From: Amnibacterium sp.
GTDB lineage: Bacteria > Actinomycetota > Actinomycetes > Actinomycetales > Microbacteriaceae
Reading direction: 5' to 3'
NCBI RefSeq assembly: GCF_036559085.1
Contig: NZ_DATBTU010000075.1
Coordinates: 68,705 to 132,704 of the forward strand
DNA: 64,000 bases
Shown: piece after piece, positions 46,241 to 53,018 of the stretch
How positions within the stretch are numbered: position 1 is the first letter of the stretch
How the letters are laid out: the number at the start of each line of letters is the position of its first letter
Position numbers and translations under genes: made by a program
The notes under the pieces: model-generated
What the model saw: the letters and a program-made list of their open reading frames with translations, nothing else
The model's database searches: none
Told to the model about the DNA's origin: nothing

Positions 46241-47335
46241 TCAGCGCTGGCCGGCGGCCCTCGAGCGGCGGCGGGCGGCGCGCACATATTGCGGCGGCCA
46301 CGGGGCGTCGGCGCCGAGGTCCTCGGCGGCCGCGAGCGGGAAGTGCGGGTTGCGCAGGGACGCGCGGGCGATCATGACCGCATCCGCACGGCCGGATGCC
46401 ACGATCTCCTCGGCCTGCTCGGCCTCGGTGATCAGGCCGACGGCGCTGACGGGCACGCCCGCGAGCCGCTTGACCTCCTCCGCCAGCGGCACCTGGTAGC
46501 CGGGACCCACGGGGATCTCGGCGGGGCCGTTGCCGCCGGAGGAGATGTCGAAGAAGTCGGCGCCCGCATCCCGTGCCCAGCCGGCGACCGTCGCGGTCTC
46601 CTCGACGGTCCAGCCGTCCTCGCGCCAGTCGGTGGCGGAGAAGCGGACGTAGAGCGGCGTGCTCGGCGCGGCCGCGCGCACCGCGGCGACGACCTCGAGC
46701 AGCAGCCGGGCGCGGTTCTCGAGCGAGCCGCCGTACGCATCCGTGCGCTGGTTGCTGAGCGGCGAGAGGAACTGGTGCAGCAGGTAGCCGTGCGCGGCGT
46801 GCAGCTCGAGCACGTCGAAGCCGGCCTCGACCGCCCGGCGCGCCGCGGCGGCGAAGTCCTCGACGACCTTCGCGAGCCCGTCGGCGTCGAGCGCGTCCGG
46901 CTCGTCGTAGCCCGGGAACGCGACGGCGGACGGGGCGACGGTCCGCCATCCGCCCTCGCCGACGGGGACGGTGCCGGAGGCGCCGGCGAACGGCGAGTAG
47001 GTCGACGCCTTGCGGCCGGCGTGCGCGAGCTGCACGCCGGTGGCGGTGCCGAGGCCGTGGGCGAAGTCGATGATGCGGGACCAGGCGGCGGCCTGCTGCT
47101 CGTTCCAGATGCCGGTGTCCTGCGGGGAGATGCGCCCCTCGGGGCTCACCGCGGTGGCCTCCGTGAAGACGAGGCCGGCTCCCCCGCGGGCGAGCGAGCC
47201 GAGGTGCACGAGGTGCCACTCGGTGGGCACGCCGTCCTCGTCCTCGACGGAGTACTGGCACATGGGGGCGATCCACAGCCGGTTGGGCAGGGTCAGGCCG
47301 CCCACCTCGATCGGGGAGAACAGCGTGGATGTCAT
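46241..47335 (-). CDS. NADH:flavin oxidoreductase (Old Yellow Enzyme, YqjM/NamA-like)
   Basis: APMCQYS, GRISPQD, QLAHAGRKAS, ELHAAHGYLLHQFLSPLSNQRTDAYGGSLENR, PGYQV. Confidence 0.93.
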   Translation of the reverse strand: MTSTLFSPIEVGGLTLPNRLWIAPMCQYSVEDEDGVPTEWHLVHLGSLARGGAGLVFTEATAVSPEGRISPQDTGIWNEQQAAAWSRIIDFAHGLGTATGVQLAHAGRKASTYSPFAGASGTVPVGEGGWRTVAPSAVAFPGYDEPDALDADGLAKVVEDFAAAARRAVEAGFDVLELHAAHGYLLHQFLSPLSNQRTDAYGGSLENRARLLLEVVAAVRAAAPSTPLYVRFSATDWREDGWTVEETATVAGWARDAGADFFDISSGGNGPAEIPVGPGYQVPLAEEVKRLAGVPVSAVGLITEAEQAEEIVASGRADAVMIARASLRNPHFPLAAAEDLGADAPWPPQYVRAARRRSRAAGQR

Positions 47336-47967
47336 TCGGGCTCCTGGGTGTCGTCGGCGAGGGCGGTGAGGAAGGCGCGGAGCGCCGCGGCCGTCGTGAA
47401 CACGTGCGCTGTCGCGCCGATCGATTCGGCGCCGCGGACGTTCTCCGCCCTGTTGTCCACGAAGACGAGCGCGGCCGGTGCTATTCCGAGCTCGCGGCAG
47501 ACGTGCAGGTAGACCGCGGGATCCGGCTTCGACATCCGCAGCTCGCCTGACACGAACGCCTGCTCGAACCAGCGGCTGATCGGGGCGAACCGGAAGATCC
47601 CGCCGTACTCCTCGGCGGCGTTCGAGAGGAGCGCGAGGCGCGTGCCTCCCGCGGCGAGCTCGCCGATCAGGGCGACGACATCGGGCTCGGCGGTCAGCCA
47701 GCCGCGCATGTCCGCGTTCCAGAGCGACTGCCGGCGGGCCGCGTCCCAGTCCCCGCCGCAGTCCGCCGCGATCCGCCGCCAGTACTCGTCGGAGGTGATC
47801 GTGCCGCCGTCGAGGTCGGCGCGGTAGGCGGCGTAGCCGGCCCAGAACGCGTCGGCGGGCACATCCGCGATCGCCAGGAGCTCCTCGCGGTCGGCCTCGG
47901 TCGGGGTCAGGGAGATCACCTCGCCGTAGTCGAAGACGACGACGCGGTCCCGGATGTGCAGAGCCAT
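47332..47967 (-). CDS. HAD-superfamily phosphatase
   Basis: VVFDYGEV, LLSNA, KPDP, FVDNR. Confidence 0.88.
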   Translation of the reverse strand: MALHIRDRVVVFDYGEVISLTPTEADREELLAIADVPADAFWAGYAAYRADLDGGTITSDEYWRRIAADCGGDWDAARRQSLWNADMRGWLTAEPDVVALIGELAAGGTRLALLSNAAEEYGGIFRFAPISRWFEQAFVSGELRMSKPDPAVYLHVCRELGIAPAALVFVDNRAENVRGAESIGATAHVFTTAAALRAFLTALADDTQEPE

Positions 47968-48017: not shown

Positions 48018-48854
48018 ATGGCAGGGGAGTGGGCGCCCTTCGGCGCCGCGGAGGCGAGGCGCTGGATCGCGGTCCCGGAGTCGGGCGACGACAAGTACTC
48101 GCGGGGCGTGCTCGGGGTGCTGACGGGGTCCGACCGGTTCCCGGGCGCCGCGGTGCTCGGCGTCGAAGGCGCGAGCCGGGCCGGGCTCGGCATGATCCGC
48201 TACGTCGGTCCCGCGCGGGCGGCCGACCTCGTGCTGCAGCGGCGTCCGGAGATCGTCACGGTCGACGGCAGGGTGCAGGCGTGGCTGATCGGCTCGGGGA
48301 TGCCGCCGGAGCGCGACGACGCCCTCGAGCGGCAGGTGCGCGGGATGCTCGGCCAGGGCGTGCCGGTGGTGCTCGACGCCGGCGCCCTCGACCTCGCGAC
48401 GTCGGGCAGCGGGCCGGTCGTCGTCACGCCGCACTACGGCGAGCTCGTGCCCGTGCTCGCCGCCGCGGGTGTGACGACCGACCGGGCGACCGTGCAGGCG
48501 GATCCGCGCACCTGGGCCGTGCGCGCCGCGCACGAGACCGGCACGACGGTGCTGCTGAAGGGCGCCGTCACCCACCTCGCCGACGTCTCCGGGCCGCGCT
48601 TCGCCGTGCAGGCCGGGCCGCCGTGGGTCGCCACGGCCGGCGCGGGCGACGTGCTCGGCGGCGTGCTCGGTGCGCTCGTCGCCACCCACGCCGATGAGAT
48701 CGCCGCGGACCCGGCCGTGCTCGCCGAGATCGCGGCGGCCGCCGCGTGGCTGCACGGGGAGGCCGGGCGGCGCGCGTCCTCCGGTGGCCCGATCGCGGCC
48801 CTGGACATCGCCGAGGCGCTGCCCGCGGTGATCGCGCAGCTGCTCGCCGCCTGA
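48018..48854 (+). CDS. nnrD: ADP/ATP-dependent NAD(P)H-hydrate dehydratase (no epimerase domain)
   Basis: DKYSRG, FPGAAVL, VLDAGAL, TPHYGEL, LLKG, ATAGAGDVLGG. Confidence 0.9.
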   Translation: MAGEWAPFGAAEARRWIAVPESGDDKYSRGVLGVLTGSDRFPGAAVLGVEGASRAGLGMIRYVGPARAADLVLQRRPEIVTVDGRVQAWLIGSGMPPERDDALERQVRGMLGQGVPVVLDAGALDLATSGSGPVVVTPHYGELVPVLAAAGVTTDRATVQADPRTWAVRAAHETGTTVLLKGAVTHLADVSGPRFAVQAGPPWVATAGAGDVLGGVLGALVATHADEIAADPAVLAEIAAAAAWLHGEAGRRASSGGPIAALDIAEALPAVIAQLLAA

Positions 48855-48924: not shown

Positions 48925-49332
48925 GTGCGAAGAATCGGAGCCGCGGCCGCACTCGGGATCACCGTGGGAGGGCTGCTCGCGGGCTGCACGGCAGCCGGGG
49001 CCGCCGTCCCGGCGCAGTCCGCGGCGCCGGCCGGGCCGGCGAAGGACGGCACCTACTCCGCGACCGGCGACTACGACACCCCGGGCGGCCCCGAGTCCGT
49101 CCACGTCACCCTGTCCGTCGCGTCCGGGATCGTGCGGTCCGTGCAGGTCACCGGGTCCGGCGGCACGCCGAACGCGCAGCACTACGAGGCGGCGTTCGAG
49201 TCCGGCATCGCGGGCGTCGTGGTCGGCAAGAAGCTCGCGGGACTGACCGTCGGCGCCGTCTCCGGCTCGTCGCTCACCGGCGCGGGCTTCGATGCGGCGC
49301 TGAACGCCATCCGCAGCGAAGCGGCCAAGTGA
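48925..49332 (+). CDS. FMN-binding lipoprotein (flavinylation substrate)
   Basis: Lipobox LAGC; DGTYSATGDY.TPGG.ESV.VTL; C-terminal VGAVSGSSLT, equivalent to the [S/T]GA[S/T] flavinylation motif. Confidence 0.85.
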   Translation: MRRIGAAAALGITVGGLLAGCTAAGAAVPAQSAAPAGPAKDGTYSATGDYDTPGGPESVHVTLSVASGIVRSVQVTGSGGTPNAQHYEAAFESGIAGVVVGKKLAGLTVGAVSGSSLTGAGFDAALNAIRSEAAK

Positions 49333-50204
49333 TCGCGACGACCTCGGTCACGGCGTTCGAGGCCATCGGCACCACCTGGCGGATCACGACGGAGCGGCCT
49401 CTCGAGCCCGCGGTGCGCGCCCGGGTCGACGCGCTCGTCGCCGAGTACGACCGGACGTTCTCGCGGTTCCGCTCCGACTCGGCCGTCGCCCGGCTGGCCG
49501 CGACCGGCGGCCCCGTCGACCTCGGCCGCTGGGCGCCGCCACTGATCGACCTGCTGCTCGCCTTCGCCCGCATCACGGACGGCGGGGTGACGCCCCTGGC
49601 CGGCGGCGCCCTCGAGCACCTCGGCTACGACGCCGGCTACTCGTTCGCCGCCGGTCCCGGCTACCGGTCCGCGCCGGCGTGGACGGCCCTCCACCTCGAC
49701 GGCACGGTCGCGACCCTGGACGAGCCGGCCGTGCTCGACGTCGGCGCGGCCGGCAAGGGCCAGCTCGTCGACCTCGTCACCGAGCTGCTCGTCGCCGCCG
49801 GCCATCCGGCCTGCACGGTCGACGCCGGCGGGGACATCCGCGTCGTCGGCCCCGCGGTGCGCGTCGCCCTGGAGCACCCCTTCGACCCCGAGGCCGCCGT
49901 GGCGGTGGTCACGCTGGCCGATGCGGCCATCGCGGGATCCGCGCTGGGCCGCCGAGCCTGGACCGCCCCCGACGGCCGCCGCCTGCATCACGTGCTCGAC
50001 GGCCGCACCGGCCGGCCCGTCGACACGGTCGCCGCCACCTGGGCCGTCGCCGGCAGCGCCATGCTCGCCGACGCGCTCGCGACCGCGCTGTTCCTCGTGG
50101 GGCCGGAGCCGCTCGAGGCCGACTTCGCCTTCGACTGGTTCCGGATGGCGGCCGACGGCCGCGCCCACTGGTCCCCGTCGCTGCAACCGGAGGTCTTCCG
50201 GTGA
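49329..50204 (+). CDS. apbE: FAD:protein FMN transferase (ApbE family), no signal peptide visible
   Basis: AIGT, LDVGAAGKGQLVD, DAGGD, HHVLDGRTGRP, ADALATALF. Confidence 0.9.
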   Translation: MIATTSVTAFEAIGTTWRITTERPLEPAVRARVDALVAEYDRTFSRFRSDSAVARLAATGGPVDLGRWAPPLIDLLLAFARITDGGVTPLAGGALEHLGYDAGYSFAAGPGYRSAPAWTALHLDGTVATLDEPAVLDVGAAGKGQLVDLVTELLVAAGHPACTVDAGGDIRVVGPAVRVALEHPFDPEAAVAVVTLADAAIAGSALGRRAWTAPDGRRLHHVLDGRTGRPVDTVAATWAVAGSAMLADALATALFLVGPEPLEADFAFDWFRMAADGRAHWSPSLQPEVFR

Positions 50205-51736
50205 TCGTGGTCGACCGCATCCGCGGGCCGCTCGGGCGCATCCCGATGGCGCGGCTCGTGCTGATCTGCCTCGCGGCGATCGCCCTCGTCGCCGTGATCG
50301 CCTCGATCCCGCACTGGATCGGCTACCCGACGGCGGGCCTCGTGAGCAGCCTCGTCGTCGCGCTCGTCGCAGCCCGGCTCGCGGCAGCGCTGATGGGCGC
50401 GATCTCCCGCGCGCCGGTGCACGGCACCTCGTCCCTGATCACCGGGCTGATCCTCTTCCTGCTGCTCTACCCCTCGACCAAGCCCGTGGACCTCCTGCTG
50501 CTCGCGGCCGCCGCGATCGTCGCCGCCGCGTCGAAGTACCTCGTGACCGTCGGCGGCCGGCACGTGCTGAACCCGGCCGCGGCAGGGGCCTTCGTCGTCG
50601 GGCTGACCGGCCTGTCGGGCGGGGTCTGGTGGGTCGCGAACCCGGTGCTGCTGCCGCTCGTGGCCGTCACCGGGCTGCTCGTCGCCGTGCGGGTCGGCGC
50701 CGTGCTGCCGGCCCTCGTGCTCGTGGCCGCCGGGGCGCTGCTCGAGTCCACGGCCTCCGTCGCGCAGGGCGCGGAGCCGCTGGCGGCGGTCACGGTCGCG
50801 CTGACGAGCACCCCGCTGGTGTTCCTCGCCGGCTTCATGTTCACCGAGCCCGTCACCCTGCCGCCCCGCACCGGCCAGCGGATGCTCGAGGCCGGCCTCA
50901 TCGCCGTGCTGCTCGCGGTGCCCTACGTGCTGCCGTTCCGGGTGGCCACGTTCGGCCCGAGCCCGGAGCTCACGCTGCTGCTCGGCAACGTGCTCGCCGT
51001 GCTGCTCGCCCGTCCCGTCGCGGCGCAGCTGCGCTTCGCCGGCCGCCGCCCGCTGACCGCGAGCGCCACCGAGTACGCGTTCACGCCGGACAGCCCGGTG
51101 CTGCACCGCGCCGGCCAGTACCTCGAGCTGCAGCTGCCGCACCGCGGCGCGGACCGGCGCGGCATCCGGCGCACCCTCACGATCGTGTCGCCGCCAGGCG
51201 ATCCGGCGCTGCGCGTCGCGGTGCGCACCCGGGAGCCGATGTCGAGCTTCAAGCAGGCGCTCGACGTGCTGCCGCTCGGCAGCCCGGTCCGTGCCGTCAC
51301 GGTGTCGGGGGCGTTCACCCTGCCGGACGACCGGTCGACGCCCCTGCTGCTCGTGGCGAGCGGGATCGGCATCACTCCGTTCGTGAGCCAGCTGGAGGCG
51401 GAGCGGGCGGCGATCGCGGCCGGCGAGGCGCCGCGCGACGTGCTCCTCGTCGACCGGGTGGCCACCGGCGAGGACCTGCCGTACCGGGACGTGCTCGTGG
51501 CGAGCGGCGTCCGCGTGCTCGTCGTCTGTCCCGACCCCGGCACGCTCGGCGGCTTGCCCGAGCACTGGCACGTGGCGCAGCGGTTCGATGCCGCGGCGCT
51601 CGCCGCGGTGCTCCCGGAGCCGCGGCGGCGGATCGCGTACGTCTCCGGATCGCCGGCGTTCATCGCCCGCGCCCGCTCCGTGCTCCGCGCCGCGGGGGTG
51701 CGCCGCATCCGGACCGACGCCTTCGCCGGGTACTGA
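50201..51736 (+). CDS. RnfD/NqrB-like membrane domain fused to a ferredoxin-NADP-reductase-type FAD/NAD(P) domain
   Basis: N-terminal ~270 aa hydrophobic with SKY...RHVLNPAA and FMFTEPVT (NqrB/RnfD-like). C-terminal RTLTIVS, ASGIGITPF, YVSGSP (FNR family). Confidence 0.85.
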   Translation: MIVVDRIRGPLGRIPMARLVLICLAAIALVAVIASIPHWIGYPTAGLVSSLVVALVAARLAAALMGAISRAPVHGTSSLITGLILFLLLYPSTKPVDLLLLAAAAIVAAASKYLVTVGGRHVLNPAAAGAFVVGLTGLSGGVWWVANPVLLPLVAVTGLLVAVRVGAVLPALVLVAAGALLESTASVAQGAEPLAAVTVALTSTPLVFLAGFMFTEPVTLPPRTGQRMLEAGLIAVLLAVPYVLPFRVATFGPSPELTLLLGNVLAVLLARPVAAQLRFAGRRPLTASATEYAFTPDSPVLHRAGQYLELQLPHRGADRRGIRRTLTIVSPPGDPALRVAVRTREPMSSFKQALDVLPLGSPVRAVTVSGAFTLPDDRSTPLLLVASGIGITPFVSQLEAERAAIAAGEAPRDVLLVDRVATGEDLPYRDVLVASGVRVLVVCPDPGTLGGLPEHWHVAQRFDAAALAAVLPEPRRRIAYVSGSPAFIARARSVLRAAGVRRIRTDAFAGY

Positions 51737-51749
51737 GTACGCTCGCCCC

Positions 51750-53018
51750 GTGAGCGGGAGCGGCGGCCGGCGGAGTCGCCCCCTCGGGCTCGTGGTCCTC
51801 ATCGCCGCATTCGTGCTGCTGCACGGGCTGCTCGGCGTCGCCGGGCTCGTGCCTGGCCTCGGGGGCCCCTGGGCCGACCCGACTCCGTTCGGCGACGTGA
51901 TCAGCGTCTACCGCTTCTGGATCGACTACTGGCACCAGAACGGGCAGCTCGTCGGCATCGACACCCCGTGGGTCTACCCGCTGCTCGCGCTCGTGCCGAT
52001 GCTCGCGGTGTCGGTCGCGGGCGACGCCGCCTACGGGCCCGTCTGGGTCGTGCTCGTGACGCTGCTCGACGTCGGCGCGCTGGTGCTCGTCGCCCGGCGC
52101 AGCCGCCGGCTCGCGTGGTGGTGGGTGCTGTTCACCGCCTGCCTCGGCCCGGTCGCGATCGGGCGGATCGACGCGGTCGCGCTGCCGATCGCGATCGCCG
52201 GCGTGCTCGTGATCGGATCGCGACCCCTGCTCGCCACGGTGCTGCTGTCGGTCGCCACCTGGGTGAAGGTCTGGCCGGCCGCGGTCATCGCCGCGCTGCT
52301 CGTCGCGGGCAAGCGGACCGCCGCCGTGATCACCGGCGTCGCGTTCACCTCCGCCGTCGTGATCGGCGGAGCCGTCGCGCTCGGCGCCGGGCGCAACGTG
52401 TTCTCGTTCGTGGCCGCGCAGACCGGCCGCGGGCTGCAGGTCGAGGCGCCGGTGACCGGCCTCTGGCTGATCGACGTGCTGCTGCGGGTGCCCGGCGCAT
52501 CCGTCTACTACGACCGGGACATCCTCACCTTCCAGGTGGCGGGCGTCGGCGTCACGCAGACCGCGGCGGTGATGACGGCGGTGCTCGCGGTCGGGGCGCT
52601 GATCGTGCTCGGGCTGGCCCTGCTCGCCCGGCTCCGCGGCGGTCGGGACGAGGACGTCGTCGCGCTCACCGCGTTCGGCCTCGTCTCCGCGTTCCTCGCC
52701 CTGAACAAGGTCGGCTCGCCGCAGTACCTCACCTGGTTCGTCGCGCCGATCCTGCTCGGCCTCCTCACGACCCGCCGGTTCCGCTTCCCGGCGATCGTCG
52801 TGCCGATCATGGCCGTGCTCACCCAGCTGGTGTACCCGTGGGGCTACTCGCTCGTCGTGAACGCGGCGCCGATCGGCATCATCGTGCTCGAGCTGCGCAA
52901 CCTGCTCGAGGTCGTGCTGCTCGCCTGGACGATCGGCGCGCTGCTGCGCACGCGCGCCGAGACGACGCCGGGCACGCGGCCGCAGCCCGAGCGCCTGCCG
53001 GACCGCGCGCTGTCCTGA
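51750..53018 (+). CDS. Glycosyltransferase family 87 (DUF2029), polyprenol-P-mannose-dependent
   Basis: WVYPLLA, GRID, WVKVWP, RGLQVE, NKVGSPQY; multi-pass membrane protein. Confidence 0.85.
   Translation: MSGSGGRRSRPLGLVVLIAAFVLLHGLLGVAGLVPGLGGPWADPTPFGDVISVYRFWIDYWHQNGQLVGIDTPWVYPLLALVPMLAVSVAGDAAYGPVWVVLVTLLDVGALVLVARRSRRLAWWWVLFTACLGPVAIGRIDAVALPIAIAGVLVIGSRPLLATVLLSVATWVKVWPAAVIAALLVAGKRTAAVITGVAFTSAVVIGGAVALGAGRNVFSFVAAQTGRGLQVEAPVTGLWLIDVLLRVPGASVYYDRDILTFQVAGVGVTQTAAVMTAVLAVGALIVLGLALLARLRGGRDEDVVALTAFGLVSAFLALNKVGSPQYLTWFVAPILLGLLTTRRFRFPAIVVPIMAVLTQLVYPWGYSLVVNAAPIGIIVLELRNLLEVVLLAWTIGALLRTRAETTPGTRPQPERLPDRALS

Follow-up and report, generated by a model that had tools for sequence, protein, structure and literature searches.

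The closest described relatives of the locus analysed here are the NQR/RNF-like systems, which Méheust et al. (2021, eLife; PMC8238504) defined from 127 gene clusters, mainly of Actinobacteria and the candidate phyla radiation. Huang et al. (2024, mSystems; PMC11334425) used AlphaFold-multimer to model such a system from Ktedonobacter as a two-subunit complex. In their account the membrane domain is without the threonine that carries covalent flavin mononucleotide (FMN) in NqrB and RnfD, and the FMN of the extracytosolic subunit is suggested to reach the non-covalent flavin site of the membrane subunit. In the Rnf and NQR complexes themselves, electrons move from the FMN of RnfG/NqrC to the covalent FMN of RnfD/NqrB, then to the riboflavin of RnfD/NqrB, and finally to RnfC or quinone; this riboflavin lies on the cytoplasmic side, ~8 Å from the covalent FMN (PMC12174285). 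Here we describe a three-gene module in a stretch of 64,000 nucleotides from Amnibacterium sp. (contig NZ_DATBTU010000075.1; this whole stretch is referred to below as the window). The module encodes an FMN-binding lipoprotein (FMNb, P0001), an ApbE-family transferase that uses flavin adenine dinucleotide (FAD) as FMN donor (P0002), and a fusion of an RnfD/NqrB-like membrane domain to an FNR-type reductase (P0003). We consider it likely that this locus belongs to the NQR/RNF-like class already published, a flavinylation-based system of transmembrane electron transfer. The annotation is correct, but the class to which it points had been described before, and conceptually the locus adds nothing to the two comparative studies.

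Components of the module and their conservation

The membrane part of P0003 was recognised by profile comparison. The protein itself matched no Pfam family at E<=0.1; among its close homologs (40-93% identity), PF03116 was matched by 11 of 34 and PF00175 by 20 of 34. A profile built from the N-terminal part only found A. vinelandii RnfD (8ahx_D) with an E-value of 2.5e-4, and hhalign aligned P0003 with E. coli RsxD at 8.5e-6 over 184 columns, with residues 71-266 of P0003 on residues 71-335 of RsxD. Both proteins share the motifs SALxTGL, K..(G)...FNPA and T(D/E)PxT, and the conserved motifs of the membrane domain read SSLITGL, ASKYL...RHVLNPAA, WW and TEPVTLPP. The AlphaFold2 model of P0003 has an overall pLDDT (predicted local distance difference test) of 90.5, and its membrane domain is mostly at 86-98, with 10 helices. 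Loop charges fit an orientation in which the positive N-terminus is inside, as is the C-terminus, a ten-helix layout that is the architecture of RnfD and NqrB (PMC12174285). This topology places the FNR domain in the cytoplasm and a shortened loop at residues 136-150 outside. Thus the membrane domain required by the definition of Méheust et al. is present on the evidence of the two profile comparisons, not by a literal Pfam match.

The RsxD alignment contains a single large gap, at RsxD residues ~148-220. This segment holds the flavinylated SQAT site and has no counterpart in P0003, in agreement with the missing threonine described by Huang et al.; there is also no [ST]G[AS][ST] motif anywhere in P0003. 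Since the loop with the covalent-FMN threonine is missing, the domain is RnfD-like but cannot hold covalent FMN, and any flavin in it would be non-covalent. The genome (3.0 Mb, ~92% complete) contained no further match to PF03116 and none to PF02508, the RnfA/E-type family (RnfB and RnfC were not searched). RnfD and NqrB proper combine covalent FMN on the loop threonine with RnfA/E partners, and neither was seen here. With the loop deleted, and with neither a PF02508 match nor another PF03116 match in the genome, P0003 is classified as a homolog of RnfD/NqrB and not as an Rnf or NQR subunit.

The C-terminal half of P0003 is an FNR-type reductase domain that would use reduced nicotinamide adenine dinucleotide or its phosphate, NAD(P)H. 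It matched FNR-type families of NCBIfam (best 4e-13); the P0003 family profile found the reductase GcoB (5ogx) in the PDB at 9.5e-18, together with many FNR-type reductases, and Foldseek matched the model to flavohaemoglobin and FNR reductase domains at ~1e-13. The NqrF-like NAD-binding domain (PF00175) of the class definition is thus represented by these three kinds of match, with no direct Pfam match. The domain shows the motifs RRTLTI (RxYS-like), SSFK and GIGITPF and an invariant C-terminal ...DAFAGY, and P0003 contains no ferredoxin domain. With the full-length model, FNR-domain matches filled the 50 Foldseek matches listed, so that the RnfD homology of the membrane domain is established by the profiles.

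The lipoprotein begins with a standard lipoprotein signal (MRRIGAAAALGITVGGLLAG followed by C; LLAGC lipobox at residues 17-21), which leads through an Ala/Pro linker of ~20 residues to an FMN_bind-like domain at residues 40-135. The lipobox is kept in most of 31 FMNb homologs, with a plain membrane anchor in a few distant ones. In the alignment of these homologs, residues V112, S113, G114, S116, L117 and T118 of the VSGSSLT motif (112-118) are invariant. P0001 had no match in Pfam, PF04205 included, or in NCBIfam. The hhalign comparison of the FMNb profile with the single E. coli RsxG sequence was likewise non-significant, and it was PF04205-positive orthologs and fold matches that connected the protein to FMN_bind. 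Orthologs from Patescibacteria and Chloroflexota, one of which matches PF04205 directly, aligned with the FMNb profile in hhalign with a probability of 95% and an E-value of 2.5e-8, SGSS falling on SGAT. In a PDB profile search, VSGsSLT of P0001 fell on VSGATYT of the FMN-binding domain 8p2a. The same domain was the best fold match (prob 1.00, TMt 0.64) of the AlphaFold2 model, whose pLDDT is 82-94 over most of the domain and 69 in one block; 3o6u (CPE2226), NqrC and RnfG came lower in the list. On this profile and fold evidence, P0001 is assigned the FMN_bind fold with a motif of the [S/T]GA[S/T] type. The predicted FMN acceptor is thus Ser116, in the SGSS that is the only [ST]G[AS][ST] motif across the three proteins.

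P0002 matches PF02424 at 1.5e-39 (136.6 bits, cut-off 25.6), with residues 14-260 on profile positions 2-249. Its best PDB matches are ApbE/Ftp structures, including 5mgy and 1vrm, and its HHVLDGRTGRP segment aligns with YSHTLDPQSGQP and YHHILDPSTGYP of these two, which form the conserved His-containing H-x-LDP motif.

All three genes, of which the fusion gene occupies 50201-51736 (the others are given in Table 1), translate without stops. When G+C at third codon positions (GC3) is plotted, the frame changes at ~49330 and ~50200, which are the proposed junctions, and GC3 in the coding frame is 0.92-1.0 except near the start of the lipoprotein gene. Both junctions are GTGA, in which a TGA stop overlaps a GTG start, and these overlaps suggest co-expression. 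The first 15 residues of P0003 are conserved in the family, and the conserved G12 and R18 support the GTG at 50201, not an internal ATG, as its start. The class definition also includes a nearby gene for ApbE, for an FMN-binding protein or for both, at least one of these products having a signal or lipidation site; in the window, both genes lie directly upstream of the fusion gene, with overlapping codons. Scans for promoters and terminators at the locus gave nothing informative.

The initial annotation of this DNA, made from its letters alone, had proposed much of the above. Its FMN-binding lipoprotein with lipobox and SGSSLT motif, its ApbE flavin transferase, and its single polypeptide joining an RnfD/NqrB-like domain to an FAD/NAD(P)H reductase are all borne out by the matches just described, and it was right that minimal 'NQR/RNF-like' clusters had been noted in comparative genomics (PMC8238504, PMC11334425). 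It had also stated that Fe-S motifs are absent, and we found none in the three proteins, which contain 1, 1 and 2 cysteines (P0001, P0002 and P0003, respectively). The statement that no other Rnf/Nqr subunits are present holds for PF03116 and PF02508, RnfB and RnfC not having been searched. The host was called an aerobic actinobacterium, which fits the haem-copper oxidase encoded in the genome and the best-named homologs, which come from Amnibacterium.

The association of the three genes is widely conserved. When one genome per species was scanned, more than 318 relatives were obtained; the comparison covered 80 loci, with the window added for clustering. The ApbE gene adjoins the fusion gene in 72 of the 80 clustered fusion-gene rows (window included), and FMNb is directly upstream in ~70 loci when SGSS and SGAT types are taken together. 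The order FMNb-ApbE-fusion was seen in ~50 loci with the actinobacterial type of FMNb and in ~20 with a second type. Given this adjacency and the recurrent gene order, the association is not due to chance. No fourth gene family is shared among the 80 loci beyond lineage-specific synteny.

The core recurs in Actinomycetota, Patescibacteria and Chloroflexota. Within the window's own family, the membrane domain occurs in 84 of 201 genomes and 45 of 101 genera, and a library of 1.84 billion representatives yielded 664 clusters at 50% identity (E<=1e-30), nearly all of ~500 amino acids. Because P0001 and P0003 of the window lie below the thresholds for PF04205, PF03116 and PF00175, censuses based on Pfam must undercount the class, which is far larger than the 127 published clusters; Pfam counts underestimate it greatly. 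With two proteins, and with flavins only, the class would form a minimal path for electrons from NAD(P)H out to the cell surface. It is frequent among soil Actinomycetota and among Patescibacteria, whose genomes are reduced.

The Actinomycetota form one clade in a tree, and the window falls with Amnibacterium within it. Sister to this whole clade is a copy from Candidatus Saccharimonadales (L010), whereas further Patescibacteria, Chloroflexota and some additional bins are placed on the opposite side. The L010 locus has an actinobacterial-type FMNb (SGSS) and the long ApbE; most other Patescibacteria have an SGAT FMNb and a short ApbE of ~248 amino acids. Gene transfer between the Actinomycetota and Patescibacteria groups is possible. 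Two kinds of apparent variant were rejected. Extended or ApbE-containing 'fusions' in the metagenome homologs P0021 (790 amino acids), P0121 and P0013 are frameshifted assemblies with long out-of-frame stretches. In Arthrobacter loci, additional open reading frames that lie upstream and look 'FMNb-like' are without a Pfam domain; low-complexity Ala/Pro/Ser linkers were probably what drew them into the cluster.

Proposed electron path and its alternatives

Compared with the published NQR/RNF-like system, the window has the same three components (the fusion of an NqrB/RnfD-like domain with an NAD-binding reductase, the extracytosolic FMN-binding subunit, and ApbE), falls among the same taxa (Actinobacteria, candidate phyla radiation and Ktedonobacteria), and shows the same loss of the covalent-FMN threonine. 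There is no essential difference, except that the window proteins are missed by the Pfam definition, being sub-threshold for all three families, and that the acceptor residue in the window would be Ser (SGSS), not Thr (SGAT).

From these features we infer flavinylation of the lipoprotein, a membrane flavin and an outward flow of electrons to an extracytoplasmic acceptor. ApbE would transfer FMN from FAD to Ser116 of the lipoprotein, and the cytoplasmic FNR domain of P0003 would oxidise NAD(P)H on its FAD. Electrons would then cross the membrane through the RnfD-like domain, probably by way of a flavin bound non-covalently where RnfD/NqrB has its riboflavin. On the outer side, the covalent FMN of the lipoprotein would dock where RnfD/NqrB, on the loop deleted here, normally holds its own covalent FMN, and this surface FMN would pass electrons to the acceptor. 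The most economical reading of the whole is that it reverses the RnfC-RnfD-RnfG branch of Rnf, so that electrons flow outwards, and that an FNR domain stands in for RnfC. This scheme is supported by the position of the shortened 136-150 loop outside, the side on which RnfD/NqrB carries FMN. The published model of the class is the same, and it includes an AlphaFold-multimer complex with the FMNb flavin at the flavin site of the membrane subunit (PMC8238504, PMC11334425). The path from NAD(P)H through FAD and the membrane to surface FMN that the initial annotation had drawn agrees with that model and with our tests. Its 'membrane flavin' stands in part: the domain is RnfD-like, but with the threonine loop deleted its flavin cannot be covalent, and a non-covalent one would have to take its place.

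Several points weigh against this scheme. Without an intermediate cofactor in the membrane, the distance from FAD to FMN is too long for electron transfer. The passages of the literature that deal with the class report no purified, assayed or biochemically characterised member. Flavinylation of a lipoprotein by a leaderless ApbE does not follow the textbook extracytoplasmic scheme (see the next section). Furthermore, no gene for an acceptor or for metal uptake is linked to the module, either at the locus or recurrently among the 80 loci. Since conservation is limited to the three-gene core, the neighbourhood of the module probably does not encode the acceptor.

The gene context also bears on a narrower idea, one of those suggested in the initial annotation, by which the module would serve specifically to reduce ferric iron or another metal for assimilation. 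Flavinylated systems are often linked to iron, and the ferrous transporter VIT1 occurs in 6 of the 127 published clusters (PMC8238504). However, the neighbours at this locus are non-metal genes, no iron or metal gene recurs among the 80 loci, and no fourth gene is conserved. The VIT1 gene of this genome is found elsewhere, on contig C45, where it and a NuoF-like gene belong to a separate flavinylation cluster of the MsrQ-like kind. The proposed metal acceptor is thus unsupported at the locus; iron reduction by the window module is only a guess, and a dedicated ferric or metal reductase is, in our view, unlikely.

Relative to the RnfC-RnfD-RnfG branch of Rnf (A. vinelandii 8ahx; E. coli RsxABCDGE), the membrane domain of the window is homologous to RnfD, its FMNb has the fold and motif of an RnfG/NqrC-type FMN_bind protein, and the cytoplasmic partner works with NAD(H) in both. 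The differences are that the fused FNR domain replaces RnfC with its FMN and two 4Fe-4S clusters, that the ~70-residue loop of RnfD with the flavinylated threonine is deleted, that FMNb is a lipoprotein and not a subunit anchored by a single helix, and that ion-pumping apparatus is lacking (RnfA/RnfE-type proteins were not found by PF02508 in this genome, where RnfB was not searched). With Na+-NQR (NqrA-F), the window shares an NqrB-like membrane domain, an NqrC-like FMN subunit and, as in NqrF, an FNR-type input that oxidises NADH. It is without the ferredoxin domain of NqrF, the 2Fe-2S cluster of NqrD/E, and NqrA; it shows no sign of a quinone site, and its electron flow is presumed to be one-way and outward, not semicircular.

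These relationships raise the question of whether the module is an energy-coupled device, in which the RnfD/NqrB-like domain has retained the ion path of its relatives and couples NAD(P)H-driven electron transfer to movement of Na+ or H+, or in which an ion gradient drives the electrons. RnfD and NqrB are related to ammonium/urea transporters and provide the proposed ion path in NQR and in some Rnf complexes (PMC12174285), and the membrane-embedded charged or polar residues K112, R120/H121, E216, E256 and N263 are invariant in the P0003 family. However, such residues could equally bind flavin, and the driving force from NAD(P)H to flavin is small. Moreover, all proposed pumping mechanisms centre on the RnfA/E (NqrD/E) subunits, with their intramembrane 2Fe-2S cluster, and on the switching cycle of RnfG; these are missing here, RnfA/E as judged by PF02508. 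We regard energy coupling as very unlikely.

Among systems with other membrane routes, extracellular electron transfer in Listeria (Ndh2, EetA/B, PplA and FmnB) is also an outward path fed by NADH in a Gram-positive bacterium, and it too has as terminal carrier a surface lipoprotein with FMN attached by ApbE. The membrane routes are unrelated, Listeria using the quinone pool and the window a reductase fused to an RnfD-like domain. In addition, FmnB is an exported lipoprotein that obtains FAD through an energy-coupling factor (ECF) transporter, whereas the window ApbE is leaderless. The MsrQ-like systems, which have a ferric-reductase domain, follow the same logic as the window, with a membrane domain fused to an FNR-type domain beside an FMN_bind protein and ApbE, and two such clusters occur in the same genome (on contigs C45 and C58). 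Their membrane domain is a di-haem cytochrome b; that of P0003 has no haem-type signature, and the VIT1 and NuoF-like genes of the C45 cluster are both missing from the window cluster.

A leaderless ApbE and the site of flavinylation

ApbE enzymes that modify extracytosolic substrates are usually exported or lipid-anchored. P0002, as read from its sequence, appears to be neither, and in this it departs from the published scheme, a point that the initial annotation had not noticed. Signal peptides were judged here by hydrophobicity and by the limits of the open frame, not by a dedicated predictor. The core motif FEAIGT begins at residue 10 of P0002, the frame upstream of the start is non-coding by GC3, and there is no N-terminal hydrophobic segment in the protein and no room for one. 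Orthologs show the same pattern: in ~50 loci of the actinobacterial type and ~25 of the Patescibacteria/Chloroflexota type, ApbE starts 0-20 residues before the core, and in low-GC genomes in-frame stops ahead of the core exclude a leader. The four ApbE paralogs of the genome (4/4) are all leaderless, and the FMN_bind proteins encoded next to them have a lipobox or a signal anchor. In a sample of the phylum (L094-L121), a clear hydrophobic leader or anchor is present on most ApbE proteins from low-GC, small-genome Actinomycetota, and these detected leaders serve as positive controls for the scan. ApbE of the high-GC lineages in this sample has no leader, and for several of these genes the frame is closed by a stop 2-14 codons ahead of the core. 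This difference between low-GC and high-GC lineages may reflect two modes of flavinylation within one phylum.

Export is not a defining feature of the ApbE family, since cytosolic members exist; Klebsiella and trypanosomatids have such enzymes, and the parts of a review that treat them note cytosolic substrates only (PMC12052999). The sections on these systems in the same review and in the two comparative studies (PMC8238504, PMC11334425) do not discuss a leaderless ApbE in NQR/RNF-like systems.

These findings suggest a variant of the same electron path in which the leaderless ApbE modifies the FMNb precursor in the cytoplasm, before or during export, a variant that we put forward tentatively, as possible but less probable than its absence. 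Besides the consistent lack of leaders in the loci and paralogs above, which the same scan does find on low-GC, small-genome ApbE, and the precedent of the cytoplasmic enzymes, it is in keeping with the location of the acceptor motif, which is 20 residues from the C-terminus of P0001 and hence in the last part to be exported. However, the cytoplasmic ApbEs known so far act on cytoplasmic substrates. It also requires that a chain already bearing FMN be translocated, generally by Sec and possibly by the twin-arginine translocation (Tat) pathway where the arginines are present; the signal of the window FMNb has MRR, and we hold this export step with the same tentativeness. Tat was rejected as a general route for FMNb, as the twin arginines are not conserved across the 31 homologs and as, of 6 Patescibacteria genomes that have the system, 3 lack TatC (these genomes are metagenome-assembled). 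Sec would thus have to carry the FMN-modified chain. To our knowledge, no case of Sec export of a chain with covalent FMN has been reported.

The broader proposal, that ApbE is cytoplasmic and that the precursor of an FMN_bind protein exported by Sec or as a lipoprotein is flavinylated before translocation both in NQR/RNF-like clusters and in other flavinylation clusters of high-GC Actinomycetes, appears doubtful to us at present. If flavinylation did precede export, no extracellular supply of FAD would be needed, which in our reading would suit lineages whose envelope keeps no FAD outside the membrane. It would also be a route of extracytoplasmic flavoprotein biogenesis that the literature on these systems, in the parts dealing with flavinylation, does not describe. 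In any case, a dedicated ApbE that is consistently leaderless raises the testable question of where flavinylation occurs.

Neighbouring genes and other flavinylation clusters of the genome

The features of the module and its neighbours are listed in Table 1.

Table 1. Module genes, domains and neighbouring genes, with positions in the window
Feature	Position	Strand	Remarks
OYE-family NADH:flavin oxidoreductase	46241-47329	-	
HAD hydrolase	47332-47967	-	
NAD(P)HX dehydratase	48018-48854	+	70 nt upstream of the FMNb gene
FMNb gene (P0001, 135 aa)	48925-49332	+	lipoprotein with divergent FMN_bind domain (assigned by profile and fold)
ApbE-family FAD:protein FMN transferase gene (P0002, 291 aa)	49329-50204	+	leaderless; PF02424 match
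RnfD/NqrB-like membrane domain of P0003 (residues ~1-273)	50201-51020	+	10 predicted helices
FNR-type FAD/NAD(P)H reductase domain of P0003 (residues ~274-511)	51021-51736	+	profile and fold matches
GT87-family membrane glycosyltransferase	51750-53018	+	starts 14 nt after the stop of the fusion gene

The OYE, HAD and NAD(P)HX dehydratase neighbours are related to flavin or NAD(P)H, yet they do not recur in related loci, and their adjacency to the module is probably coincidental. Two-component genes are also found nearby, on the minus strand with the OYE and HAD genes. The GT87 gene may be co-transcribed with the module; its position beside it is not conserved in other genomes.

In total, the genome has four ApbE genes (in the window and on contigs C45, C58 and C28), none of which encodes a signal peptide. 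The cluster at C45:214-6012, annotated from sequence motifs and from matches to PF02424 and PF04205 only, is a second flavinylation cluster. It begins with a fusion of a ferric-reductase-like membrane protein and an FNR domain, continues with an FMN_bind lipoprotein (MRLRALVYSLAGC...VSGATYT), a VIT1-like protein with a GANDGIVS motif and a leaderless ApbE, and ends with a second MsrQ-like membrane protein and a NuoF-like protein (GRGGAGFPT). In its motifs this cluster looks like the MsrQ-like/VIT1 iron system described by Méheust et al. (PMC8238504), and judged by its gene content it appears a better candidate for iron reduction than the window cluster. A third cluster, at C58:30335-33143 on the minus strand, consists of a leaderless ApbE, a ferric-reductase-like/FNR fusion and an N-terminally anchored FMN_bind protein (MRRAPIVITATLVG...VSGATYT). 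The remaining ApbE gene, at C28:58995-60200, encodes an orphan leaderless enzyme.

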